Assembly: GCA_028715605.1 (NCBI GenBank)
Contig: JAQURM010000003.1
Location: 98,810 to 162,809 of the forward strand
Length of the DNA: 64,000 bases
Direction: 5' to 3'
Source of the DNA: Desulfovibrionales bacterium
Lineage (GTDB): Bacteria; Desulfobacterota; QYQD01
A program made the position numbers and the translations under genes. Positions within the stretch are counted from its first letter, which is position 1. The number at the start of each line of letters is the position of its first letter. The notes under the pieces were generated by a model, which saw only the letters and a program-made list of their open reading frames with translations, made no database searches and had not been told where the DNA came from. Of the stretch, positions 4,785 to 38,341 are shown one piece after another.

Positions 4785-5990
4785 ATGGACTCTGAGCCCG
4801 TTTTTAAAAGCGACATCTTAAAGGCCCGTACACAGCGGCTCCAGGAAAAGATGCGGGCGCAAGGCATCGCTGGAGCCCTTATAAGACAGAATGCAGACCT
4901 TTACTATTTTAGCGGCACGATGCAGGAGGCTTATCTTTTTGTGCCCCTGAGCGGCTCACCCCTTCTCATGGTCAGACGCAACCTGGAACGGGCGAGAGCG
5001 GAGTCTTCCCTTGAAAACGTTATACCGCTTGGCGGTGTGCGGGGGATTCCCAAGGCGATAGCCGGGCATGGTTATGATGTCCCAGGGCTTTTGGGCCTGG
5101 AAATGGATGTCATCCCGGCCAAGCTATTTCTTTATTTAAGGGATGACGTATTTCCGGGAGTGAAAATAGCAGACATTTCTCATGCGATTCGCGAGGCGCG
5201 GATGCTCAAATCTCCCCTGGAGATAGAATGGATGCGGCAGGCTGCCGAACAACTGAACAGCGTCATTAAAGAGGTGCCGGATTTATTGCGGCCGGGAATG
5301 ACCGAACTGGAACTTTCCATTGAGCTTGAATACCGGCTCCGCCGGGCCGGCCACCAGGGATTTATGCGTATGCGAGCCTGGAACCAGGAACTTTTTTTTG
5401 GGCACATACTATCCGGGCCGTCCGGCGCGGAACCTTCTTATTTTAAGGGGGCCACAGGAGGCAGGGGTATCAATCCGGCCTTTAGCCAGGGGGCGTCAAG
5501 TAAGGTTATCTCTGTGGGGGAGCCTGTTAGTGTTGACCTGGGAGGATGTGTAAATGGTTATATGACCGACCAGACCAGGATGTTTGCCCTCGGTTTCCTG
5601 CCCGAGGAGTTGAAAAAGGCTTATGAGGCGGTCATTGAGATACACTATGGACTCCGGAAAAAGATAAGGGTAGGCGAGACCTGCGGCCGCATCTATGAAT
5701 GGGCCTCTGACAAGGCGGCCTCTCTGGGTTATGCGGACAACTTTATGGGATATGGAGAGGCTAAGATGCCGTTTATCGGTCACGGCATAGGGTTGGAAGT
5801 AGATGAGCTGCCGGTTTTTTCGGCCCGGAATCCTATGCGGCTTGAGGCCGGGATGACTTTTGCCATCGAGCCTAAGTTCATCTTCCCCGGAGTAGGGCAC
5901 ATAGGCGTTGAAGATACCTATGTTCTCACGCCGAAGGGCCTTGAGGCGATCACCACGTCACCGGACAGGCTGATGATTATTGACGTTTAG
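4785..5990 (+). CDS. M24 family Xaa-Pro aminopeptidase/creatinase-like peptidase
   Basis: Creatinase_N-like N-terminus and an M24 core with HGIGLEVDELP and metal-binding D/H/E motifs. Confidence 0.85.
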   Translation: MDSEPVFKSDILKARTQRLQEKMRAQGIAGALIRQNADLYYFSGTMQEAYLFVPLSGSPLLMVRRNLERARAESSLENVIPLGGVRGIPKAIAGHGYDVPGLLGLEMDVIPAKLFLYLRDDVFPGVKIADISHAIREARMLKSPLEIEWMRQAAEQLNSVIKEVPDLLRPGMTELELSIELEYRLRRAGHQGFMRMRAWNQELFFGHILSGPSGAEPSYFKGATGGRGINPAFSQGASSKVISVGEPVSVDLGGCVNGYMTDQTRMFALGFLPEELKKAYEAVIEIHYGLRKKIRVGETCGRIYEWASDKAASLGYADNFMGYGEAKMPFIGHGIGLEVDELPVFSARNPMRLEAGMTFAIEPKFIFPGVGHIGVEDTYVLTPKGLEAITTSPDRLMIIDV

Positions 5991-6072
5991 AGGCCTTGAA
6001 AGAGGGGTATTATCCATCCGGTGTCAATATTCTGAATTCTGTATCAGTTTAGCTGGTTGAAAGAGTATTCTA

Positions 6073-6150
6073 AAATCCCTCCCACCCTCCCTTTTTCAAA
6101 GGGAGGAGAAACGCTTCCCCCTTTGGGAAAGGGGGATTGAGGGGGATTTT
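6073..6150. repeat. Repeat family 1, copy b (CCCTCCC/GGGAGG subtype)
   Basis: aatccctcccaccctccctttttcaaagggaggagaaacgcttccccctttgggaaagggggattgagggggatttt. Near-identical to the copy at 16745-16820. Confidence 0.85.
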
Positions 6151-6192
6151 GGCCCTTATAGAGCGCCTTGCTTAGGCATATTTTTCAAAAAC

Positions 6193-7020
6193 CTAAAGTG
6201 TTACTGAATTCCGACTCCTGCATTCCGAATTCTGTATGATAAGCGGTATTTTCTCACCAAGCAACGCCACCCGAAGCCACCTGCACGCAAACTTAAAGAG
6301 AGAAAGTTCGTCTTGTAACGCCGTCCTTATCTCTTCGCCCTTAAGTTTGTATGTATCCAGGAAGCCTTGTCTGCACACCAGTTGAGCGAATTCGTCCAGG
6401 CTGTAACTGGCGAGAAAGAACATCTGTATGCCTGTTTTGTCCAGACCGCCGGCGGGGAACCTCTCGCTAAGGGTTACCTGGGACCACAGGTCGTTCATCT
6501 CTTCGTAAACAGCCGTCCCTTGTCTTTCCCTCCATGTCCTTACGGTTAACAAGTTATCTTCTTCCGGGAATCCCCCTGTATCTCCCTTTTCCAAAGGGGG
6601 ATTTTTTCCATTAAAGCCCAGGCAAAACGGCCGCTTAACTACTGAATACAAGGGGGTTGCTGGTTTGCTGTCCCTGGTTTTGTCAACGCATGGTTCCAGC
6701 GGAAAGATGCGGCATGACCAGGGACGGTCCGGATATACCCGGCATCCATCCGGACCGGAGAATGGACAGCGTTTTTCATCGCCGGTCATCTTCATTACCA
6801 CCAGGGGGTGGCCGATTTCTTCCATATAGAGGGCTGTGGTATAGCGGTCAAGGAATTCCCTTGAGGAAAGAGAAAGATTCCTTTTCAGCCGCATTATGTC
6901 ATAAGGCGTGAGGAAAAGGTTGATATCCCGGCAGCACCGGTTGAAGCAGTCCAAGCCCTTCCGGCAGTCAAAGGGGAATATGTCATCGAGAGTAAGTGTA
7001 AGACTTTCATCCATTGCCAT
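6193..7020 (-). CDS. YkgJ-family (UPF0153) Cys-cluster protein carrying an in-frame repeat-derived insertion
   Basis: FDCRKGLDCFNRCCRD Cys cluster and CPF..GCR..P..C motifs. The segment NPPLEKGDTGGF is encoded by repeat family 1 at 6569-6607. Confidence 0.7.
   Translation of the reverse strand: MAMDESLTLTLDDIFPFDCRKGLDCFNRCCRDINLFLTPYDIMRLKRNLSLSSREFLDRYTTALYMEEIGHPLVVMKMTGDEKRCPFSGPDGCRVYPDRPWSCRIFPLEPCVDKTRDSKPATPLYSVVKRPFCLGFNGKNPPLEKGDTGGFPEEDNLLTVRTWRERQGTAVYEEMNDLWSQVTLSERFPAGGLDKTGIQMFFLASYSLDEFAQLVCRQGFLDTYKLKGEEIRTALQDELSLFKFACRWLRVALLGEKIPLIIQNSECRSRNSVTL
6569..6607. repeat. Repeat family 1, short copy c, lying inside a CDS
   Basis: aatccccctgtatctcccttttccaaagggggatttttt, in-frame within the ykgJ-like gene. 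Confidence 0.8.
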
Positions 7021-7114
7021 GTCCTCAATTCAATAGCCAAAGTTAGAAGCCGTGGAGACAGGAGACAGAACACAGAATACAGAATACAGAATTATTCTGT
7101 CTTCTGACTTCTGA

Positions 7115-7498
7115 CTACTCAGTTTTTACCGCAATAAAGGCCATCTCTACCCGCGCGTCTTTAGGCAACCCGGAAACCTCCACTGTGGCCCTGGCCGGCG
7201 GATCGTCTTTAAAGAATTCACTATAGACGGCATTCATGGCGGCAAAGTCATCCAAATCTCTCAGATAGACAGTAGCCTGAACCACATCCGCATAGCCCAT
7301 ACCTGCCGCCCTTAATATCGCCCCAAGGTTTTTCAGAATCTGTCCGGTCTCGGCGGCTATATCTACATTGACCATCTCTCCGGTGACCGGGTCAAGGGCG
7401 ATCTGTCCGGAGATGAATAACTGGCCGCCGGCCATGACCGCCTGACTATATGGCCCTATGGCCTCCGGGGCCTCTTTTGTAGTAATGATCTTTTTCAT
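7115..7498 (-). CDS. ridA: RidA (YjgF/TdcF) family reactive-intermediate deaminase
   Basis: APEAIGPYSQAV...GQIALDP..G...A.VTVYL.D..DF..MN.VY. Typical 127-aa length. Confidence 0.9.
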   Translation of the reverse strand: MKKIITTKEAPEAIGPYSQAVMAGGQLFISGQIALDPVTGEMVNVDIAAETGQILKNLGAILRAAGMGYADVVQATVYLRDLDDFAAMNAVYSEFFKDDPPARATVEVSGLPKDARVEMAFIAVKTE

Positions 7499-7584
7499 CT
7501 TTTTTCCCTATCAGGACGTCCGCCTGGGCGGACAGATATGCGCAGAAAATTTTTCAAATTATCTTTCTATATTTAAAATCCTGG

Positions 7585-7810
7585 TAACACGTTAGGTGTT
7601 TGAAACAGTCCTACATTCAGAAAAGGCTATTAATCTGGAACTCACAACCTCATGAAAAGAAGATACAAAAATCTCACTTCAATTTGGAACTCATGAACTC
7701 ATGAAAAACAGAGCAACCAGAAGCCGAACTGCTGAAAATCAATTTCTCAAAAATACTTTCCTGATTTCCTGAGTTCCTGATTAAAACGTCTTCCTGAATT
7801 CCTGATTTGA
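7585..7810. repeat. MITE-like element family 3 (termini GTAACACnTTAGGTGTTTGAAAC...; internal TTCCTGAGTTCCTGATTAAAACGTCTTCCTGAA)
   Basis: Shares its arms with the inverted copy at 24855-25000. Solo termini lie at 6184-6200 and 16848-16868. Confidence 0.75.
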
Positions 7811-7879
7811 TATGTTTTTTGCACTTTTTATCATGTATTTTCAAAATGCTAACTTGTTACAAATCCTGTAAATCTGCGT

Positions 7880-26681: not shown

Positions 26682-26969
26682 TTAACCCTTCAGTGACTTG
26701 ATAAATTCATCAATCGGGATTGCCGCTAAGGTCATGCCTTGCATGGTGCCCCGGGCCCCAAGCTCCACGGAAACCCTGGTGACCGTGGTATTATCCGGCG
26801 CCTCCAGGATATTGACAAAGTCATAGGGGCCGAGCACGGCATACTGGGCCAATATTTTTACGCCCATGGCCTCCACTTCCTTGTTCACCTCTTTGATTCG
26901 TTCCGGATGTTTTTTGAGGGTCTCTCTGCCTTCACCGGTTAAACTGCTAAGCATCACATAAATACCCAT
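26682..26969 (-). CDS. GYD-domain protein (small, about 96 aa)
   Basis: Internal ATG at 26969 (MGIYVMLSSLTGEGRETLKKHPERIKEV...), a typical GYD-family N-terminus. The upstream extension in the ORF track is unlikely. Confidence 0.6.
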   Translation of the reverse strand: MGIYVMLSSLTGEGRETLKKHPERIKEVNKEVEAMGVKILAQYAVLGPYDFVNILEAPDNTTVTRVSVELGARGTMQGMTLAAIPIDEFIKSLKG

Positions 26970-27399
26970 GGCAAGCCTCCGTCGGAAATAGGTTTTTATC
27001 TTAATTTTATGATTGCAAATCTGCGTGGTCCTTGTCAACAGAAATTCTATTTTCAGCATCCCACAGCGACCGTTGCAGTATAGATCGCTATCAGTCGCCT
27101 GATAAAGGTTAGCATGACCTGTGCGAAAAATAACTTTTATTTTTCTTGACAAACTGAATGCAAATTCATAGTCTTTAATTAAAGGATACGCAACTAAATC
27201 TATTTTTTAACAAACGAGGATTTCCATGGATGGAAGCCCGCAGCCCTCTAAAAAATCAAATCTCACATATATACTCCCTGTTGAGCTTGGGTCGGCGACT
27301 GAGAGAAGGGTCGGCCCGTTCCTTCCGGATAAACTGTTTTTCTCCGAAACTGCGTGAGGCTTAAAAACATAAAAAGGGCTTAGGCCCGAGGAGGTAAAA

Positions 27400-28176
27400 A
27401 TGTCAAACGGAACGAGTGCAGCAGTAACCGAGGCCGCCCGCCTCAATGAAATTGGATTTCCGGAGTTTACGGCTAAACTGATTACAGATACCTTCGATGC
27501 CCTGGTAAGCGCCAATATACGTCAAACAGAGGCATATATTGAACTGGTTACCCAGGTATCAAAAACCATCACCCAATTCATCAACGACACCAAAGATGAT
27601 ATAAGCGGGGAGATGATCCTGCAGTTTCTGGCCAAAGTCCTTCCGGCCGCCGAGGAGGAATCCGGGACAAAGGTGAAAGAGGGGGGCACACTTACCGAAC
27701 AGGAAGCCACCACTATCACCAGTGCTGTGGCTGTAGCAGGAGATGAGGCCAATAATCCTGCCATTAGCCAGGGCGACATCGATAAGAGCAAGTATCAGTC
27801 AATCCTGGACGCCGTAGCCCGTCGTATTTCTGCCGACAAATACACCATGCTCAAAGAAATGGTCAAGATGGGCATCCTCCGGCTGGTAGTCGAGAACGGG
27901 GTAATCGAAACCCGGCTCACCTTTACCACGTACGGCTCGACCTTCTATCAAAAGCAAACGAGTAAATACCACCGCGATGCCTTCAGCTTCCGCGCCAAGG
28001 CCAAGACCGGATCTCTTGTCAGTCTGTGGGCCAAGGCCTCGGCATCTACGTCGTACAACAGCGTCAATATAAGCACGTCTAAAGAGACCAACCGCGATAT
28101 ATCCGGCAGCCGGGTACAGATTTACGGCCGGGTGGAGATTAATTTCAAAACCGATTATCAGCCTCTGACGGCGTAA
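27400..28176 (+). CDS. Hypothetical protein, paralog A of an unassigned three-member family (258 aa)
   Basis: RBS GGAGG. N-terminal motif EIGFPEFTAKLITDTFDALV and C-terminal motif GRVEINFKT, shared with the next two ORFs. Confidence 0.6.
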   Translation: MSNGTSAAVTEAARLNEIGFPEFTAKLITDTFDALVSANIRQTEAYIELVTQVSKTITQFINDTKDDISGEMILQFLAKVLPAAEEESGTKVKEGGTLTEQEATTITSAVAVAGDEANNPAISQGDIDKSKYQSILDAVARRISADKYTMLKEMVKMGILRLVVENGVIETRLTFTTYGSTFYQKQTSKYHRDAFSFRAKAKTGSLVSLWAKASASTSYNSVNISTSKETNRDISGSRVQIYGRVEINFKTDYQPLTA

Positions 28177-28186
28177 GGGTATCCCG

Positions 28187-28894
28187 ATGCCAAGCCCCAT
28201 CACTAAACCGGCGGAGGTGGGTTTTGCCGAGTTTACCGGCCAGCTCATCTCTGAAACCTTCCAGGCTGTGGTTCGTTCCCTGGTTCAACAGGAGAAAGAG
28301 GTCAGGGACATGGAGCAAATCGCAGCCCTGGAACCGGCGGATTTCGCCAGGCTCTATATTACCGAAGATATGCTGAGAGCCGAGATTGTTCGCTTGTTTC
28401 CATCTAAGGAGGGCAAAGAGACCGAAAGCTCTATATATCCAGGCTCCCCTTATACCCTACAGGATGAGAAACAGGCCGAGGACCCGCCTGTATTCATACT
28501 TACCGGCTACCGTATAACCGGGAAAGACTTGGAAAAGGATCGCGAAACCGGAAATCTTAAAATAAGTAAAGTTGGTTATGCGCATATTAAAGAGATTATC
28601 CAATCCATGCTGGCCGCCGGCTATAGGGACACCCTTCTCCTCATGTTTCAAAAGGGCATACCCAGGGTTATGATTGATCATGGAAAAATCAATACCAAAC
28701 TTTCATTTTATCTGACTAACGTTATGGAAAAGGGAGAGGAGACCAAATCCAAACTGCCTGCGGCCTTTATATCTAAGCTATCCCTGCCCAGACTGACGGT
28801 CAAGCCGGTGAGTAATCGTACCCCGGAATTTCTAACTCTCAAGATCGATGTTATTGGAGAGGTCGAGATAACATTTAAAACCATAAGCGCTTAA
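28187..28894 (+). CDS. Hypothetical protein, paralog B (235 aa)
   Basis: N-terminal EVGFAEFTGQLISETFQAVV and C-terminal GEVEITFKT. Separated from paralog A by 10 nt. Confidence 0.6.
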   Translation: MPSPITKPAEVGFAEFTGQLISETFQAVVRSLVQQEKEVRDMEQIAALEPADFARLYITEDMLRAEIVRLFPSKEGKETESSIYPGSPYTLQDEKQAEDPPVFILTGYRITGKDLEKDRETGNLKISKVGYAHIKEIIQSMLAAGYRDTLLLMFQKGIPRVMIDHGKINTKLSFYLTNVMEKGEETKSKLPAAFISKLSLPRLTVKPVSNRTPEFLTLKIDVIGEVEITFKTISA

Positions 28895-28923
28895 TCTGAT
28901 CGCTTACAGCTCCTTATAAGATT

Positions 28924-29385
28924 ATGCCATACAAAGATACGAAAATAACTGCAAAGACCAGAGACATTTTTCTGACGGAGACGATATTATCTATCCACCA
29001 TGACGTCCAGAGCGCCATCGATTACATAAGCGAGGTGTCCGGCCGCGAGTCCACAGAATTGGGAAAGAGCCCGGCGGTTATGGGAATTGAAAAAGTAAGG
29101 ATCAGGCTCCCCATCATTTTCGAGACAGAGCAGAAAGAGCATAAGGTAGATGAAAAACCGGCTGTCTTTGACATCAAGACCATTGTAGGTAATCTGGCGC
29201 GGCGGAAGGGTTTTCTCATAGACAAGGGGGCGCCGGGTAAACGCGGCCTATATACCAAGGTAAAGTTAATACACCCAAAAGCGGCGGAGACAGCAGGAGC
29301 CGGAGAAGAAGGACCACCGAAGCAGCAGCTCGTAGGTGAGATAGAGATTATTTTTGCCCCCTTGGGCCGGGAAGAGTCCGAATAG
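28924..29385 (+). CDS. Hypothetical protein, shorter paralog C (153 aa)
   Basis: Shares only the C-terminal strand motif GEIEIIFAP. Confidence 0.5.
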   Translation: MPYKDTKITAKTRDIFLTETILSIHHDVQSAIDYISEVSGRESTELGKSPAVMGIEKVRIRLPIIFETEQKEHKVDEKPAVFDIKTIVGNLARRKGFLIDKGAPGKRGLYTKVKLIHPKAAETAGAGEEGPPKQQLVGEIEIIFAPLGREESE

Positions 29386-29433: not shown

Positions 29434-29763
29434 ATGCATCTAATAACATCCTTCCGGCACCTGGAAATCAGAAAAATATCTTGTGTTGCTGTTTTGTTTC
29501 TCGCCTTGGTATTTTTTCTCCCATCCACAGTGCTGGCCGGTAAGTTACAAGGGACAGTCATCGGCCGGAAGGGAGACCTTAAAAAATACGTGAGAATCAG
29601 CTTAGTTGGCCGCGAATCCAGGACCACATTTACCAACGGCAGGGGAATTTTTGCCTTAGACGCACCCAATGGAAGATATGGAATGACTATATTTGAGAAA
29701 GGCAACGAACAGACATTTGCAGTTGAAATACCCGGCAGGTGGAAATTTCAGGTTGATTGGTAG
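29434..29763 (+). CDS. Secreted small protein with a CarboxypepD_reg-like beta-sandwich domain
   Basis: Signal peptide (VAVLFLALVFFLPSTVLAG), then GTVIGRKGD...NGRGIFAL..PNGRYGMTI. Confidence 0.55.
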   Translation: MHLITSFRHLEIRKISCVAVLFLALVFFLPSTVLAGKLQGTVIGRKGDLKKYVRISLVGRESRTTFTNGRGIFALDAPNGRYGMTIFEKGNEQTFAVEIPGRWKFQVDW

Positions 29764-29777
29764 GCGAAGGCAAGGCT

Positions 29778-30587
29778 ATGTCACAGGAACAAAATAATAA
29801 GACAAACGACAAAAGAAAAGATGCCTGGGACAAGGCAGATATCGTTATAAAGGGAATCGGCATAGCCGTCATTTCCGGGGCCATTACCCTCTACGGCATC
29901 TGGGCAAACAATAGCCGGGAAAGAGAGGCCGAGATCAACCGGAAATCCCAGCTTTTTGTACAGACTATGAGCAACCGGGAGGCCTCGGAGTCCAACCTGA
30001 GGGCCAAGATGTTTGAACAGCTCATGAATCATTATTTTGAAAAAAAAGACGAAGAGGCCCAACTCCTATTTTTAAAACTTATTGCCCTCAATTTTCAGGA
30101 ATACCTGAACGTCAAGCCCCTCTTTGAACACCTGGCCAGAAAACTGACCTCAAGCCTGCACAGGATGGAACTCCGGAGAGTAGCCAAGGATACGATCGGC
30201 CGCCAGATTGCGGAACTGGAAGGAAGCGGGGGCGAGGTATGGGAGGAGCCGGGTTGGCTTGAGAAAGGTAAGGTTACTCCCGCCGGACCGCTGCAATTGG
30301 AATTATTAGGGGTAAGCGAAGACCGTATTCGCATAAAAACATTGCCGGAAGATGAAGACGGATTCGAGGTGACATACTTCGATATGCCTTATGTGGACAA
30401 TAGTACTATAAATGCCATGAGATATTCTGTAGTGCTCGCAGGAATAGACTTAAAAGGGGAAAGGGCTAAGATAAAGATAGTCATTTTCCCGGAGAATTAC
30501 CTGAGTCCGAGAGACAGGCCGCGCATGGACTGCCTGATTACCGATCTTCTTAAAAACCAGGAGGCGCCTGCCCCTGTAAAGAAGTAA
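29778..30587 (+). CDS. Single-pass membrane protein of unknown function (holin/anchor-like N-terminus plus a roughly 220-aa soluble domain)
   Basis: ATG at 29778, after the previous stop. TM helix IVIKGIGIAVISGAITLYGIW. Confidence 0.5.
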   Translation: MSQEQNNKTNDKRKDAWDKADIVIKGIGIAVISGAITLYGIWANNSREREAEINRKSQLFVQTMSNREASESNLRAKMFEQLMNHYFEKKDEEAQLLFLKLIALNFQEYLNVKPLFEHLARKLTSSLHRMELRRVAKDTIGRQIAELEGSGGEVWEEPGWLEKGKVTPAGPLQLELLGVSEDRIRIKTLPEDEDGFEVTYFDMPYVDNSTINAMRYSVVLAGIDLKGERAKIKIVIFPENYLSPRDRPRMDCLITDLLKNQEAPAPVKK

Positions 30588-30697: not shown

Positions 30698-31417
30698 ATG
30701 TTTCTCAAAAGAGGGAGCCAGGGCCGCCTGGTAAAAAACCTACAGGAAAGACTTAATGAACTGGGTTATGAAGCCGGGGAGGTTGACGGCTTTTTCGGGC
30801 CGAATACGGAAAAGGCGGTTTTAAGATTCCAGCAGGATAAGAAGATAGATGCCGATGGTATCGTAGGCAATCAGACCTGGCAGGCCCTGTTTGCAGAGGC
30901 CATACCCGAAACAGCCACTTCTCTGGATACACCGCCTTCTGAGGCATTATGCTTCGATATCTTCGGAGACTTCAGATTGGCCGGCTGGTCTGAACATAAC
31001 CTGGTGCGCTGCGACCTGTCGGAATGGAAAGATGCCTTCCGCCACGTCTATTACAAGACCGCGACAGAGACCATAAGGATATTTGAACATACAGACTGGT
31101 TCGGGTTCCGGACCCACCGCCTTATAGTTCCGCAATTGCGGCTGGCCTTTAAAAACCTGGCCGGGCGCGGCTTATCAAATGATCTCAAGACCTTTGACGG
31201 GTGTTTTAACCCCAGACTGAAACGGGGCGGGTCCACCTGGTCCGTCCACTCCTGGGCCATAGCCATAGATGTAAATGCCGCCTGGAATGCCTTTGGGCAA
31301 AGAGACTTCGAAATGTCGAAAGAGTTCGCCGCCTGCTTTGAGGACGTTGGCTTCATTTGGGGCGGAAGATGGTCAAAACCGGACGCCATGCACTTCCAGT
31401 ACTGTATGGACAGGTAG
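30698..31417 (+). CDS. Endolysin-like cell-wall hydrolase: PG_binding_1 domain plus LAS/M15-type metallopeptidase
   Basis: LQERLNELGY..GEVDGFFGPNTEKAV..FQ PG-binding repeat. C-terminal HSWAIAID (HxxxxxxD) with terminal DAMHFQY His. Confidence 0.8.
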   Translation: MFLKRGSQGRLVKNLQERLNELGYEAGEVDGFFGPNTEKAVLRFQQDKKIDADGIVGNQTWQALFAEAIPETATSLDTPPSEALCFDIFGDFRLAGWSEHNLVRCDLSEWKDAFRHVYYKTATETIRIFEHTDWFGFRTHRLIVPQLRLAFKNLAGRGLSNDLKTFDGCFNPRLKRGGSTWSVHSWAIAIDVNAAWNAFGQRDFEMSKEFAACFEDVGFIWGGRWSKPDAMHFQYCMDR

Positions 31418-31529: not shown

Positions 31530-32051
31530 ATGACAGAATTTGTCGTTAATCCACACCGGTGTGATCCTTATAAGCAATTCAAATTCCGTATCAAGTGGGA
31601 TGGGAAATATATTGCCGGAGTCTCAAAGGTAAGCGCCCTTAAGCGGATAACCGAGGTCGTGACCCACCGCGAGGGTGGGAGTCCTAATACCGTCCATAAA
31701 TCGCCGGCACAAACCGTATACGAGCCCATTATTCTCGGCAGAGGCCGGACACACGACCCGGAATTCGAGAAGTGGGCCAATAAAGTCTGGAACCCCGGGG
31801 CAGGATCAGGGGCGGAAGTCTCTCTAAAGGACTTCCGGAAGGATATAATTATAGAGCTTTACAATGAGGCCGGGCAGCTTGCTATGGCCTTCACGGTATA
31901 TCGTTGCTGGCCTTCTGAATACGTGGCCTTGAGTGAGCTCAATGCCAACGACAGCTCCGTGGCGTTTGAGTCCATAACGCTTCAGCACGAAGGCTGGGAG
32001 CGTGATTACGAAGTTACCGAGCCTATGGAACCGTCATTCACCGAACCATGA
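31530..32051 (+). CDS. Contractile-tail tube protein homolog (T4 gp19 / TIGR02241 'phage tail region protein' family)
   Basis: RBS AGGAGGTG. QFKFRIKWDG..AGVSKVSAL..ITEVVTHREGG ... WPSEYVALSELNANDSSVAFESITLQHEGWER matches the N- and C-terminal signature strands of eCIS/phage tube proteins. Confidence 0.8.
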   Translation: MTEFVVNPHRCDPYKQFKFRIKWDGKYIAGVSKVSALKRITEVVTHREGGSPNTVHKSPAQTVYEPIILGRGRTHDPEFEKWANKVWNPGAGSGAEVSLKDFRKDIIIELYNEAGQLAMAFTVYRCWPSEYVALSELNANDSSVAFESITLQHEGWERDYEVTEPMEPSFTEP

Positions 32052-32064
32052 AGGGGGTAAAAAA

Positions 32065-34401
32065 ATGAATGAAAAAGGTAAAAAAAAGAATGAGTTGACG
32101 CTGACCGTCAAGGTGCGTCTGGAACAGGCTAAAGGCAAGGAGCTTCCGGAGGTCGTGGTTTACGCCTTTGACCAGACCGGCCAGTTTCTTACCGCTGCCA
32201 AACTACCAAAGGGCGAGCAGGCCGAGGTCAGGCTGGATCTACCCATAGGGTTGCGAGGTACAACCGTACGAGCCATTCTCGGTCCACCCCTGGCTGCGGA
32301 AGACGAAGATGTGCCATCCTGGATGGCCATACTGATGCGCAGGGGCAAGGAACAAAAGGAAGTACCATCGTCAGCCGTCCTCGTACAGAGGGGGGCATAC
32401 GAGAAGCGCGCCCGTATGCATACGGAGCACGAGGTGCTCAGTGTAGCGGTTTTTCCCCATGACTGGACAAAGTGGCTTCGATGTTTATGTACGGTGCAGG
32501 GTAGAGTAGTCAAACGCATGGCCCTGCCGGACGGCACAACCAAAGACCTGGGTGTCTGTCACGCCTGCGTCAAGATCTATGAGGTGGACAAGTTTCCTAA
32601 ATTGATTGCGCGTCTGCCGGAGCGTGACCTTTTCCGGCTGAGGGATGATCTGTGGCGCCGCTTCAGGCAGTGGCCTCCCGAAGAATTGCCGTTTGAATAC
32701 AAACCCAGGGTTTGGCCGTCTCCGCCGCCCCCGCCACCCGAACGTACCCAAATGTCCGGCATCTCCTCTCTCGAAGCTGTCTCAGCCGTGGCCATTAACC
32801 CCCAACCTGAACCTCCGATTGAGGCCCTTGGAAAGGGAACAGTAATTACCCCCATAAATAGTCAGATACAGACGGAGCTTGAACCAATCCTCCTCGCCGT
32901 ATCCGCCACTGAACTGCGGTCGGCCCTGGTTGCCAAGGCAGACATACTGGTCCGTTTCGCCTGTCTCTGGGAATGGCTTTACTCCTATTTCCACACGGAC
33001 CTGATCAAGTGTGCCTGCACGGATGAACAGGGTCGCTTTCAGACGACCGTCTCGTATCCCTGTGGCGGTGATAAGCCCGATCTCTACTTCAAGGTGATGC
33101 AGTGTATCGATGGCGCTTTGCACACCTTATACGACCCGGGGGTGGCATGTCACACCTACTGGAACTACGAATGCGGGAGTGAGGTAACCCTTGAGGTCAC
33201 CGATCCGGCGGCCAGGGTCTGCGTGCCGACGGATCCTGTAGAAGTGCCGGCCGGCGTCTCTCTCTGGGTGATGCCTTATGCCGTGGGCGGCATCAGTCTG
33301 GATCGGATCAAGCCTAACTGGCAAAAGAACCTAACATGGCATGTGGCTGATCCGGATCCCACTAAGCGTGGTCTCACCGATTACGGAAGCATCGTAGATG
33401 CCCCGTTCGGCGGCTGGCTCGGTTTCCGTCATGGTTACGCCAGCAGCATTCCCACCCCTGCCCTGTATTACTACCGCTGGCGCTACAAAAAAGAAGGCGA
33501 AGCCGAGTGGCACGATTTCAGCGAACCTGTGGTGCGTCACTACGTCAAGGAAATGCCGGGAAAGCTGCCTACCTTCCCGGTCTGCACCCTGGGGCCAAAG
33601 GGGGTGGACGGCAAGAACCTGTACCGTTTCAAACCGCATGATCCATCCGAGTGTGGCGATTTTATCCCAGGTGGCACCAATTACTGGCCCACCGATGACT
33701 GGTTCGGCGACATCTACACCGGCTTTCTGAATTCACCCGGCCTGCCCGGGGGCGTGGACACCTCGGCCGGTAAGTACAAGATAAAGCTGGAGGTCTATGA
33801 CCAGGCAGGCAACCGTGTCACTTCCGGGCCGGGGACCTTTCAGTTTATTGTGCCTACGGGCGTGGCAGATGATGGCGTGACCATCGAGACCCGGCTGGCT
33901 GATGCCGCCGAAATCGAGAGCGATGGTTTTGTCTTTTATCTGCACATAGACAACCGGAAGTGCACGGCTATCATTGACGCGCCGACTATTGGCGGCGTTT
34001 CGGCAGGTGACGTGTGCGGATTCCTCCGCTACACGCCGGGCGATTCCACCCCGGTGCACATCGCCTTCCACGCCGTGCATACGGCCAATTTTGCCACATT
34101 CTCTTTTTCGGTCACACGCGGCGCCACTCCGGTGAGCAACGTCGGTGGCGAGGTGGCGGCCGGCTCTGTAGCGGATAAGACCACGGCTCCGTCGGACCAC
34201 AGTTACACGGGCGACGGCAACGGCAACTTCCAGCATGATTTTCCAACCGGCCGCCTGCTGGGGCCGTGTGCGGAGGCCGCCTTTGCCGAGGTTCTGAACG
34301 TGGATGCCAAGGCCACCAATGGCTGGCGGCGGCTTGACGAATATGATGCGGACGCGGTCCGCGCCTTCGCCCTAGCCCCGGAGACAGGCGATGAGACATA
34401 A
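32065..34401 (+). CDS. Large Cys-rich protein (778 aa): Lys-rich N-terminus, beta-sandwich-like domains, PPPPPP linker
   Basis: ATG at 32065 behind AAGGGGG. No signal peptide. PSPPPPPPE linker. Many Cys residues (CACTDEQGRFQ..CGGDKPDLYF..C..C). No catalytic motif I recognise. Confidence 0.65.
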   Translation: MNEKGKKKNELTLTVKVRLEQAKGKELPEVVVYAFDQTGQFLTAAKLPKGEQAEVRLDLPIGLRGTTVRAILGPPLAAEDEDVPSWMAILMRRGKEQKEVPSSAVLVQRGAYEKRARMHTEHEVLSVAVFPHDWTKWLRCLCTVQGRVVKRMALPDGTTKDLGVCHACVKIYEVDKFPKLIARLPERDLFRLRDDLWRRFRQWPPEELPFEYKPRVWPSPPPPPPERTQMSGISSLEAVSAVAINPQPEPPIEALGKGTVITPINSQIQTELEPILLAVSATELRSALVAKADILVRFACLWEWLYSYFHTDLIKCACTDEQGRFQTTVSYPCGGDKPDLYFKVMQCIDGALHTLYDPGVACHTYWNYECGSEVTLEVTDPAARVCVPTDPVEVPAGVSLWVMPYAVGGISLDRIKPNWQKNLTWHVADPDPTKRGLTDYGSIVDAPFGGWLGFRHGYASSIPTPALYYYRWRYKKEGEAEWHDFSEPVVRHYVKEMPGKLPTFPVCTLGPKGVDGKNLYRFKPHDPSECGDFIPGGTNYWPTDDWFGDIYTGFLNSPGLPGGVDTSAGKYKIKLEVYDQAGNRVTSGPGTFQFIVPTGVADDGVTIETRLADAAEIESDGFVFYLHIDNRKCTAIIDAPTIGGVSAGDVCGFLRYTPGDSTPVHIAFHAVHTANFATFSFSVTRGATPVSNVGGEVAAGSVADKTTAPSDHSYTGDGNGNFQHDFPTGRLLGPCAEAAFAEVLNVDAKATNGWRRLDEYDADAVRAFALAPETGDET

Positions 34402-34439
34402 TAACCGGAGGATTTCAAATAAGAAGGAGGTAAAAAGCT

Positions 34440-35633
34440 ATGCATAAGCCGAGGTTTTTAAGAAGTCTGGTGTTCATTGGATTAATGGTACTGGCAATGG
34501 CAGGCAGTGTTTTTGCCCAGCACGACGTATACCTGGAAACCCCAAATACTGTCCCTTCATATTGTCAGGAAACAAATATCTGGTGTGGTGCGGCCACTAC
34601 ACAGATGATCCTGGAAGGATATCCGGGCGGAACCGAACATCCATTTACGCAAACGCATATCTGGAACAGGATTCAGGCCCACAGGGATGACCTGGCGGTA
34701 AACTGGGCCACAGACCCTGATGGGCTGAGGGATACACTTATGGAGCTTGGCGGGGACCCCGGGGTGAGTTGGAATATCTATGCCAACTCCAATGCCCAGT
34801 CGTTGATGTACTCTGTCAGCTATTGGATGACCAGACGACAGTTCCCGACGGCCGTATTGGTCTATGGCTTTCAGCATTGGGTCATGATTGACGGCTTCAC
34901 AACAGATGTGAATCCTACTACAAATGCTACAATAAATCTCCAGTCGATCGAGATTGTTGATCCTGGAAACTTTCCCTGTCCGACGGCCTCTTCCGGCGGC
35001 GTGCGATCCTTAATGACCGGAGCCAACTGGTACGCCAATTACTGGTACACGCCGGGCAATATCGCGGCCAGTAAGTGGAACGGCAACTATGTCGCCGTAA
35101 TTGAACCGCCCGCCAAAGAGGGTGTAGCCAAGGCGCCCAGGCAGGTGGAAGAAGGACGTATAATCTCTGAGGGCGCCGCCAAAGAGCATGCCATGAGATG
35201 GTTTAAGGAACTTCGCCTGGAAAAACGGGCGCCCTATGCCGTACTGCGGCAGACCAAGGGACTTCAGCCGCTCCTGGTGAATCCAAAACGCAAGGGGTAT
35301 TTCCTGGTCCCCCTGGGCTATAGTGAAGGGGAACTAAGCCAGGGAGCGATCCTTGTAAATGCGTACGATGGGAGTTTTCAGGAGGTGGGTGTCTTTCAAA
35401 GACCTCTCAAGTACCTCTCCAGGGATCAGGCCATACGGATTGCCCGCAACTACCTGTGCGCCTGCAAGGATAAGCGGCTAAGAGTTCAGGCCCAGCTCAT
35501 GTTTCAACCTTCGGAGCAGACCCAAAGCCGGTTTATGCCCTTATGGGAGGTTATGGTGGACAGAGTCACTCTCTATATCACCCAGGAGGGCAAGGTATTT
35601 GAGAAGCTGACTCCGCTTCCACTGGGAGATTAA
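34440..35633 (+). CDS. Secreted papain-fold (C39-like) cysteine peptidase domain protein
   Basis: RBS GAAGGAGG. Sec signal peptide. NIWCGAATTQMILEGY Cys motif, comparable to CGTAALAGVLHYYG of the 1053 gene, and a downstream His in FQHWVMIDGF. Confidence 0.6.
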   Translation: MHKPRFLRSLVFIGLMVLAMAGSVFAQHDVYLETPNTVPSYCQETNIWCGAATTQMILEGYPGGTEHPFTQTHIWNRIQAHRDDLAVNWATDPDGLRDTLMELGGDPGVSWNIYANSNAQSLMYSVSYWMTRRQFPTAVLVYGFQHWVMIDGFTTDVNPTTNATINLQSIEIVDPGNFPCPTASSGGVRSLMTGANWYANYWYTPGNIAASKWNGNYVAVIEPPAKEGVAKAPRQVEEGRIISEGAAKEHAMRWFKELRLEKRAPYAVLRQTKGLQPLLVNPKRKGYFLVPLGYSEGELSQGAILVNAYDGSFQEVGVFQRPLKYLSRDQAIRIARNYLCACKDKRLRVQAQLMFQPSEQTQSRFMPLWEVMVDRVTLYITQEGKVFEKLTPLPLGD

Positions 35634-37468: not shown

Positions 37469-38341
37469 ATGAGTAAATTTGACAAATCAGCTCTGGGGTG
37501 GCTACCTGACTATCCTGATTTCAGGGACTATACACAGGAGCAGGAAAAGATCAGCAAAGTGCTGGCGCCCACCGGCGTTCTGAAGGCCAGGGTGAAGCAG
37601 CCTACCGCCGTCGATTTAAGGCCGTGGTGTTCAGCCATTGAGGATCAGGGGGCCCTCGGGTCATGCACGGCCCATGCGGGTGTGGGGATTGTAGAATATT
37701 ACGAGAGGCGCGCCCTTGGAAGGCATATCGATGCCTCCCGGCTATTTCTTTACAAAGCCACCCGCAATCTTCTCCACTGGACCGGGGATACCGGGGCGTT
37801 TTTGCGGAGCACTATGGGCGCATTGGTCCTTTTTGGCGTACCGCCTGAAGAGTACTGGCCTTACGCCATCGCCGATTTTGACAAAGAGCCGCCGGCCTTC
37901 TGTTATGCCTTTGCCCAAAACTATCAGGCTATTCAATATTACCGCCACGACCCGCCCGGGACGCCGGGAGATGCCCTGCTTGATCGAATAAAAACTTACC
38001 TGGCCGTAGGTCATCCCTCTATGTTCGGGTTCACAGTCTATAGCTCCATTGAGCAGGCGGACAAGACAGGTAAAATCCCATTTCCCTGCCGGGGAGAAAG
38101 GATAGAAGGCGGCCACGCTATTGTAGCCGTTGGTTACGATGATAAGGTGAAGATTAAAAATACGGGTAAATGCGGGGTCGAAACTGCCGGCGCCCTTCTC
38201 ATTCGGAACTCGTGGGGCACAGGCTGGGGAGATGCAGGCTATGGCTGGCTGCCGTATGAATACGTACTTAGAGGACTGGCCGAGGACTTTTGGTCTATTC
38301 TTAAGAAGGAATGGGTGGATACCGGAGAATTCAAGGCCTGA
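37469..38341 (+). CDS. C1 (papain) family cysteine peptidase
   Basis: QGALGSCTAHAG Cys region, HAIVAVGYDD His, and NSWGTGWGDAGYGW. Confidence 0.8.
   Translation: MSKFDKSALGWLPDYPDFRDYTQEQEKISKVLAPTGVLKARVKQPTAVDLRPWCSAIEDQGALGSCTAHAGVGIVEYYERRALGRHIDASRLFLYKATRNLLHWTGDTGAFLRSTMGALVLFGVPPEEYWPYAIADFDKEPPAFCYAFAQNYQAIQYYRHDPPGTPGDALLDRIKTYLAVGHPSMFGFTVYSSIEQADKTGKIPFPCRGERIEGGHAIVAVGYDDKVKIKNTGKCGVETAGALLIRNSWGTGWGDAGYGWLPYEYVLRGLAEDFWSILKKEWVDTGEFKA

Follow-up and report, generated by a model that had tools for sequence, protein, structure and literature searches.

A three-gene cassette of bacteria and archaea encoding proteins with a very long C-terminal hairpin and no known relatives

What is encoded by three adjacent genes whose products resemble each other at their ends and belong to no recognisable family? 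This question is raised by positions 27400-29385 of a 64,000-nucleotide (nt) stretch of a Desulfovibrionales bacterium metagenome-assembled genome (MAG), hereafter the window (assembly GCA_028715605.1, contig JAQURM010000003.1, positions 98,810 to 162,809 of the forward strand). A first reading of the letters alone (the original prediction) had proposed three tandem paralogs sharing terminal motifs, which would polymerise as sheath-like, tube-adaptor or pilin-like subunits. This proposal was partly supported: the observation was largely right, and the sheath, tube or pilin part found no support. We found that the three genes, here called A, B and C, form an autonomous, horizontally mobile and unannotated module present across bacterial and archaeal phyla, whose giant-hairpin architecture is unusual and for which no relatives are known. 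A is its highly conserved major subunit, B is a fast-evolving paralog of A, and C would be a small alpha+beta adaptor.

Two paralogs and a third protein sharing their terminal strand

Gene A (27400-28176, 258 aa), gene B (28187-28894, 235 aa) and gene C (28924-29385, 153 aa) all lie on the forward strand with spacers of 10 nt (A/B) and 29 nt (B/C), at the coordinates given by the original prediction. Their products match exactly MDD5451258.1, MDD5451259.1 and MDD5451260.1, respectively, three proteins of the Desulfovibrionales MAG that are each named 'hypothetical protein'. The Shine-Dalgarno sequence of A (GGAGG, 27390-27394) is strong and the best of the three, that of B is weaker, and none was obvious in front of C.

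The three genes had been taken for three tandem paralogs, to be checked by pairwise alignment. This holds for A and B, which are true paralogs: they aligned over their full length with BLASTP (23% identity, E = 2e-10) and with a probability of 99.6% in hhalign (E = 6.6e-24). C, on the other hand, is not a demonstrable paralog, since it gave no significant alignment with A and B, either with BLASTP (E = 12 and 0.2) or with hhalign (E = 0.067 and 0.008). The N-terminal motif thought to be common to the three proteins is likewise present in A (a helix motif, residues 15-50, 27442-27549) and in B (residues 10-29, 28214-28273) but lacking in C (28924-29385), which has an N-terminal helix, LTETILSIHHDVQSAIDYISEV, and a strand, IEKVRIRLP.

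The C-terminal motif is the part that all three proteins do share. G-x-[IV]-E-I-x-F was found near the C-terminus of A (GRVEINFKT, residues 243-251, 28126-28152), of B (GEVEITFKT, residues 224-232, 28856-28882) and of C (in the terminal strand GEIEIIFAP, residues 138-146, 29335-29361), so that C has only the terminal strand in common with A and B. The six-frame translation of the window (~128,000 residues) contained exactly three occurrences of this pattern, each at the C-terminus of one of the three proteins, and 64 of its 69 occurrences in the open reading frames (ORFs) of related loci (624,000 residues) were located at most 15 residues from the C-terminus. It was also invariant within the C family. 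By these counts, the shared motif is no chance resemblance. When we used a profile of the A/B superfamily (425 sequences), the last ~40 residues of C matched the last arm of A/B over ~37 columns (E = 4.4e-4, probability 33%). A middle-deleted A/B profile, with the N-terminal helix joined to the first strand, matched over 47 columns (E = 2.2e-3) the N-terminus of C', the larger third protein of other loci described below. Going by these marginal matches, C could be either a strongly shortened relative of the helix-plus-strand core or a protein that mimics it.

That the proteins belong to no recognisable family was borne out for A, B and C. We recovered only noise against Pfam, NCBIfam and PHROGs (E <= 1), and no hidden Markov model (HMM) of PADLOC (PADLOC-DB 2.0, E <= 1) matched them or the proteins of unknown function encoded downstream. 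Searches of PDB sequences, both with single sequences and with profiles, likewise matched nothing for A, B and C, nor did the joint A+B profile; BFVD gave no fold match, and fold searches detected no filament, shell, sheath or pilin fold. The family is thus absent from Pfam, NCBIfam, PHROGs, PADLOC and PDB, and no published description of it was found in the literature searched. A relationship of C to trypco2 or DUF2589-type small domains was dropped as 18 members of the C family had no Pfam match at E <= 10.

No signal peptide or transmembrane helix was predicted in A, B or C (maximum 19-residue hydropathy <= 1.5), indicating that the system is cytoplasmic. Their N-termini are polar and not signal-like. 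A and B are acidic overall (isoelectric point (pI) 5.0-5.9), and the three proteins as a set are mildly acidic to neutral.

The long hairpin and the spread of the cassette

The architecture of A and B was deduced from covariation and from AlphaFold2 (AF2) models. We performed a mean-field direct coupling analysis (DCA) on 425 A/B-superfamily sequences (effective number of sequences, Meff, 274). The strongest long-range couplings formed one continuous antiparallel ladder running from A157-A254 to A207-A211 (z 6.8; A157 being position 157 of protein A), with rungs at A166-A248 (z 9.3), A168-A246 (z 7.1), A176-A238, A181-A233, A193-A223 (z 6.2) and A195-A213. The anti-diagonal column sums 406, 408 and 410 each had 10-14 pairs with z > 2, against 1-6 for other column sums, and this even-odd parity points to a beta-ladder and not to a gap artefact. 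The last ~100 residues of A thus form one very long hairpin (residues 157-254, 27868-28161) of ~48 residues per arm that turns at T203-G204...L209-W210. The strands of the AF2 model of A (159-176, 182-192, 222-232 and 238-254) were all on the DCA ladder, in which residues 159-176 are the antiparallel partner of the terminal GRVEINFKT motif. B has the same architecture, with ~38 residues per arm, but its hairpin tip is shorter, variable and polar. The helical head that precedes the hairpin was modelled confidently (predicted local distance difference test, pLDDT, of 77-95 for B residues 20-160); A carries in addition a variable surface segment (residues 83-130, 27646-27789).

DCA also coupled the N-terminal motif to the base of the hairpin (A20-173, z 7.5; A24-171, z 6.6; 25-249, 32-162, 39-251 and 43-157), which explains why both termini are conserved together. 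The N-terminal motif is a helix, which lies against the hydrophobic side of the two paired strands bearing G-x-V-E-I-x-F-K-T. The hydropathy of the two faces at the hairpin base of A was +2.25 and -2.7, and the middle of the hairpin was polar on both faces. The tip, FSFRAKAKTGSLVSLWAKASASTSY (residues 195-219, 27982-28056), defined by the covariation ladder and the per-face hydropathy, is again two-faced (odd face +1.4, even face -1.3 to -1.6) and made of near-invariant residues. Its apolar face consists of F195, F197, A199, A201, T203, V207, L209, A211/V, A213, A215, T217 and Y219 and its polar face of S196, R198, K200, K202, K212, S214, S216 and S218, with L206 and W210 at the turn. This tip shows the alternating pattern of a bilayer-spanning amphipathic hairpin (~12 residues per arm with aromatics at both ends), a pattern that fits protein-protein packing too. 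The distant, plasmid-borne relatives To5 and Bp5 have Gly- and aromatic-rich alternating tips, and the tips of their paralogs Bp2 and Bp3 are polar and B-like.

A word-index search returned 624 homologues of A, the best 120 of which were all at least 60% identical; the homologues include those of Acetivibrio cellulolyticus, Desulfolithobacter and a Bathyarchaeota MAG, covering Clostridia, Desulfobacterota and Bathyarchaeia. An exhaustive search with the joint A+B HMM yielded, at a threshold of E <= 1e-3, 1,491 clusters (50% identity), of which 901 reached E <= 1e-10. Scanning one genome per species, we obtained 80 loci, distributed in bacteria among Thermodesulfobacteriota, Geobacterales, Dehalococcoidales (Chloroflexota), Clostridia, Alteromonas, Pleionea, Bacteroidales (Bacteroidota), Chlorobiaceae (Chlorobiota), Actinomycetota, Nitrospirota, Verrucomicrobiota and Acidobacteriota, and in archaea among Bathyarchaeia, Methanocella and Halorubrum. 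The cassette was present in every genome and species of Kangiella (Gammaproteobacteria) of the scan.

Gene order at 83 loci was A-B-C in 23 cases, A-B-C' in 47 and A-B alone in seven, some of the latter on truncated contigs. C is ~152 aa long and C' ~237 aa; their N-termini, a helix plus a VRVR-type strand, could be aligned (hhalign E = 0.0044), and a 119-aa protein (locus L082) matched the HMMs of both. C' contains a helix-hairpin-helix domain (residues ~98-149) that resembles the thumb of Y-family polymerases and the C-terminal domain of NusA (E = 4e-7), with weak Pfam matches to DUF4332 and HHH_5. The likeness to helix-hairpin-helix/DUF4332 proteins thus concerns C' only, whose N-terminal helix-strand module and C-terminal helical region are unannotated, whereas the C protein of the window lacks the domain. 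Over the same 72 loci, the mean pairwise identity was 55% for A and 33% for B. The identity matrices of A and B were correlated (r = 0.73) and B sorted by the type of the third gene, indicating that the cassette moves and evolves as a unit. In this identity pattern, A behaves as a constrained core subunit with fast-evolving partners.

No conserved neighbours emerged from ORF clustering at 84 loci or from Pfam and PADLOC censuses of 150 non-redundant flanking proteins, which contained 168 Pfam families, none of them represented by more than three of these proteins. Nor is there support for an origin of the cassette from phages or plasmids: no relative of A was present in 50,697 phage records or in IMG/VR, and relatives were recovered from only four plasmid records, all distant (25-28% identity).

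A family of ~1,500 clusters at 50% identity, with one subunit ~55-65% identical between archaea and bacteria and yet no family entry, is a rare combination, which usually marks a self-assembling or mechanically constrained, unstudied machine. Since the module consists of three genes only, needs no conserved neighbours and has cultured carriers (Kangiella species, Acetivibrio cellulolyticus, Geomobilimonas luticola, Desulfolithobacter dissulfuricans, Prosthecochloris vibrioformis and Halorubrum), it is experimentally tractable.

Possible functions of the assembly

Our tentative preference is for a membrane-active hetero-oligomer that C or C' would gate or nucleate. A-B-C would encode a cytoplasmic hetero-oligomeric assembly in which A and B, each with a helical head whose N-terminal helix packs on the base of the very long two-stranded hairpin, co-assemble side by side via their hairpins into a beta-sheet or a barrel-like oligomer. 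The conserved tip of A, an amphipathic segment with a Leu/Trp cap and Arg and Lys on its flanks, would bind or insert into the cytoplasmic membrane from inside. A minimal helix-plus-strand adaptor, C or C', would attach by the shared terminal strand motif and serve to nucleate, cap or gate the assembly; C' would couple it to nucleic acid. The most likely role would then be that of a conflict or stress module perturbing or permeabilising the membrane. The giant hairpins, the amphipathic tip, the swappable third subunit and the occasional membrane-protein or protease neighbours make a membrane-active hetero-oligomer the best explanation at hand, and it would add a new architecture to the few prokaryotic intracellular pore-formers. 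We are more doubtful about the wider proposal of a pan-prokaryotic cytoplasmic two-component machine whose giant hairpins, arranged as barrel or sheet, attack or remodel the cell's own membrane with C/C' as sensor or adaptor gate. In that case, bacteria and archaea would have in common a system for cell suicide, defence or membrane remodelling that is new, as is its fold.

Several observations weigh against an action on the membrane. A, B and C have no transmembrane helix or signal peptide, and the residues of the tip that would face the lipids are near-invariant small ones (Ala, Ser, Thr), which is unusual for the stems of pore-forming toxins and fits tight protein-protein packing equally well. 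The hairpin base is buried against the helix, so the hairpin is no free stem over its full length. The AF2 models of A and B are monomers and give the hairpin low confidence (pLDDT below 50), although low values are also expected of an element that becomes ordered only in the oligomer or after a switch and in that respect speak for the assembly. A is conserved far beyond typical defence effectors, and we observed no defence-island signal, the PADLOC matches in the flanks being scattered singletons. A protease is adjacent in only ~8 of the 83 loci. Finally, the evidence for C as a relative or docking partner of A and B is marginal.

The logic of the proposed assembly recalls several families of toxins. 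As in the bicomponent staphylococcal leukocidins and gamma-haemolysin of the alpha-haemolysin family, there are two tandem, co-transcribed paralogs with ~20-30% identity, each supplying an amphipathic beta-hairpin, either disordered or packed as long as the protein is monomeric, and hetero-oligomerisation would be expected. However, we found no sequence, Pfam or fold match to these toxins or to aerolysin; A and B are cytoplasmic, their head is helical and not a beta-sandwich, the hairpin is two to three times longer with its base under a helix, the tip of A is invariant in sequence, and there is a third, adaptor subunit. By analogy, the resemblance to beta-barrel pore-forming toxins would be one of logic only, and membership is unsupported. 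The ClyA-family tripartite toxins (Hbl, Nhe, AhlABC/SmhABC and MakABE) also combine tandem related subunits, a helical body and a hydrophobic beta-tongue hairpin, but they are 350-450 aa long, nearly all helical, with a short tongue and recognised by Pfam, whereas A, B and C have no Pfam match and C is no demonstrable paralog. Bacterial gasdermins are comparable in being cytoplasmic and beta-rich, in acting on the inner membrane from within, as A-B-C would, and in their patchy, horizontally transferred distribution in bacteria and archaea; cysteine or serine peptidases are also adjacent in part of the loci (C1 in the window and L019, C13 in L048, S8 in Tolypothrix). They differ by their architecture, a single protein with an inhibitory C-terminal peptide versus an adaptor and two paralogs; neither Pfam nor PADLOC returned a gasdermin match, and ~90% of the loci are without protease.

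The main rival to the membrane-active oligomer is a cytoplasmic structural polymer or cage, a more general version of the original prediction, which we consider possible without finding it probable. A would polymerise through its conserved termini, the N-terminal helix packing in trans on the base of the next hairpin, as the helix-base covariation could be intermolecular. The small-residue face of the tip would zip to a neighbour, B would be a minor or seam subunit, and C or C' would cap, nucleate or anchor the polymer, which C' would attach to DNA. A polymer or cage explains better than a membrane-active oligomer why A is so extremely conserved and why the small residues of its tip are invariant. 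Extreme conservation across domains of life combined with a variable middle surface segment is reminiscent of flagellin-, GvpA- and shell-type proteins, and the tip is invariant in its Ala, Ser, Thr and Gly. The low pLDDT of the hairpin in the monomer, the ribosome-binding site of A, the strongest of the three, and the fact that the module is not confined to defence islands are in line with a structural protein as well. In contrast, none of the folds expected of a filament, shell, sheath or pilin was detected, no cargo or assembly genes co-occur with the cassette, and a patchy horizontal distribution with an interchangeable third subunit would be unusual for a component of a cytoskeleton or organelle. 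If the polymer is real, it would be a new cytoplasmic structure, and the proteins deserve the definition of a family under either reading, membrane-active or structural.

Two other possibilities are less likely than the membrane and polymer explanations. It seems unlikely that the module is a nucleic-acid-binding complex, a nucleoid-associated or DNA-sensing device in which beta-ribbon arms of A and B with a basic face clamp DNA or RNA in the manner of HU/IHF and C' adds helix-hairpin-helix contacts. R198, K200, K202 and K212 do line one face of the tip of A, and the helix-hairpin-helix domain of C' is present in 47 of the 83 loci. However, A and B are acidic, the C-type cassette of the window has no nucleic-acid-binding domain, the hydrophobic Leu/Trp turn is unlike a DNA-intercalating arm, and contacts between proteins, too, are made by helix-hairpin-helix domains, for example the C-terminal domain of NusA. 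Less probable still is a 'jellyfish' oligomer that would work as a holdase or chaperone, comparable to prefoldin or Skp, with the hairpins as a central barrel and the helical heads as client-binding arms. No prefoldin- or Skp-type family profile or fold was matched.

The sheath, tube-adaptor or pilin-like assembly of the original prediction had started from a real likeness, the conserved termini, variable middle and terminal beta-strand motif common to the subunits, but did not hold up: the N-terminal motif of A and B is helical, there is no family or fold match, no tube gene is linked to the cassette and the proteins have no secretion signal. With respect to phage and contractile sheaths, A, B and C match no family profile (Phage_sheath_1, TssB/TssC, Afp2-4) and show neither the sheath handshake, in which terminal strands augment the sheet of the neighbour, nor the sheath fold, and the census of 150 neighbours revealed no conserved linkage to tube, baseplate or spike genes. 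They do not match the tail tube and Hcp families either (T4 gp19, PF06841, TIGR02241, Hcp), and they lack the signal peptide, class III signal, hydrophobic N-terminal helix or donor strand of type IV and chaperone-usher pilins.

An unrelated ORF of the window (31530-32051), 2 kb downstream of the cassette, is a clear Phage_T4_gp19/TIGR02241 tail-tube homologue. It forms with a 799-aa and a 397-aa ORF a block (31530-35633) found only in the window and in the related locus L005. This block is missing at the other loci, including L006 and L007, close relatives that retain A-B-C and its flanking genes, and we found no sheath, baseplate, spike or ATPase genes by the tube gene in the window. The tube gene was rejected as a cassette partner, being part of an indel lost where A-B-C is kept. 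A role of A, B and C as sheath or tube adaptor of a contractile-injection or phage-tail-like machine, for which this tube protein and the endolysin-like M15 peptidase at 30698-31417 could be invoked, is thus very improbable and effectively refuted by the tube-block indel and the distribution of the cassette, in addition to the lack of PHROG matches, phage-database or IMG/VR relatives and BFVD folds.

Surroundings of the cassette and its upstream region

We observed no obvious terminator after C. The next two genes on the forward strand encode a small secreted CarboxypepD_reg-like protein (29434-29763, identified with Pfam) and a 276-aa single-pass membrane protein (29757-30587); they are accessory genes, possibly on the cassette transcript. 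This pair is lineage-specific, being absent outside Desulfobacterota. At L019, a C'-type locus of another Desulfobacterota genome, the pair and a C1 peptidase are located directly upstream of A in a different order (5252-7811). The window also encodes a papain-family C1 peptidase (37469-38341), to which the L019 counterpart is 71% identical. C1-like peptidases flank the cassette in L024 and L025 as well. At L048, in a Nitrospirota MAG, genes for a Peptidase_C13 (legumain/caspase clan) and a stand-alone receiver domain lie directly upstream of A (6398-7675), co-directional with it and only short gaps apart. We did not retain a general model of activation by proteases, as these are lineage-specific. 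Altogether, the protease, membrane-protein, cyclase and patatin contexts, found at about one tenth of the loci, hint at the wiring of a conflict system with membrane or protease partners.

At two of the plasmid loci the family is found in an expanded, distant form. Three tandem A-like paralogs of 433-484 aa, with N-terminal extensions of ~130 aa and Pro/Ala-rich tails, are encoded by the Burkholderia pyrrocinia plasmid pBPJTT (L085, 1931-7197) and are followed by an adenylate/guanylate cyclase-domain protein and a patatin. A Tolypothrix plasmid (L086, 5737-11543) encodes A-like, C-like and C'-like proteins, the last with helix-hairpin-helix plus TIG domains, downstream of an S8 peptidase and a peptidoglycan-binding protein. 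A gene for a DUF6512 membrane protein was located less than 1 kb from the cassette in Acetivibrio cellulolyticus and in a Bathyarchaeota MAG (L002, 12018-12218; L004, 8691-9221); it was rejected as a conserved partner, as it occurs at these two loci and is not among the recurrent neighbours of the others.

The endolysin-like protein encoded at 30698-31417 (PG_binding_1 plus Peptidase_M15_4) has strong PHROG endolysin matches and no signal peptide. Its gene comes just after that of the single-pass membrane protein, which has a weak holin-family PHROG match (E = 0.006), and only the peptidoglycan-binding part is kept in L005 and L007. The 799-aa and 397-aa proteins of the tube block had no Pfam, NCBIfam, PHROG or PADLOC match. 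The 397-aa protein has a 36%-identical region in a 625-aa protein encoded 2.3 kb upstream of the L048 cassette.

Upstream of A, we identified a candidate sigma-70 promoter on the forward strand (27146-27174), consisting of a -35 box TTGACA (27146-27151), a 17-nt spacer and a -10 box TAGTCT (27169-27174). The TTGACA that had been noticed at about 27156 is therefore present, but its position had to be corrected. A consensus promoter scan did not call this site, whose -10 box matches the consensus at three of six positions. The window shares with L005, L006 and L007 an identical 32-nt block, TTCTTGACAAACTGAATGCAAATTCATAGTCT, whose flanks differ (they diverge in L006). Between the two boxes lies a perfect palindrome, TGAAT-GCAA-ATTCA (27155-27168), invariant in these four related genomes; from its sequence, TGAAT-N4-ATTCA may be the operator of a regulator. 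The preservation of the block while its surroundings diverge speaks for a promoter that has an operator within it.

The leader (27175-27399) is long, ~225 nt, as had been described, although its AT-richness is only mild (42-44% GC compared with 50% for the window). It contains a small conserved hairpin, GGGC-TTAG-GCCC (27376-27387), beside the GGAGG of A, and Rfam (E <= 1) detected no riboswitch or other RNA family in it. A divergent GYD-domain gene is present on the minus strand (26682-27152). It was listed as a 156-aa ORF starting with TTG, and the Pfam domain is restricted to residues 65-152, suggesting that the real start is probably an internal ATG near 26960. The intergenic region shared by this gene and the cassette also contains two minus-strand promoter-like sites, at 27038 and 27105.

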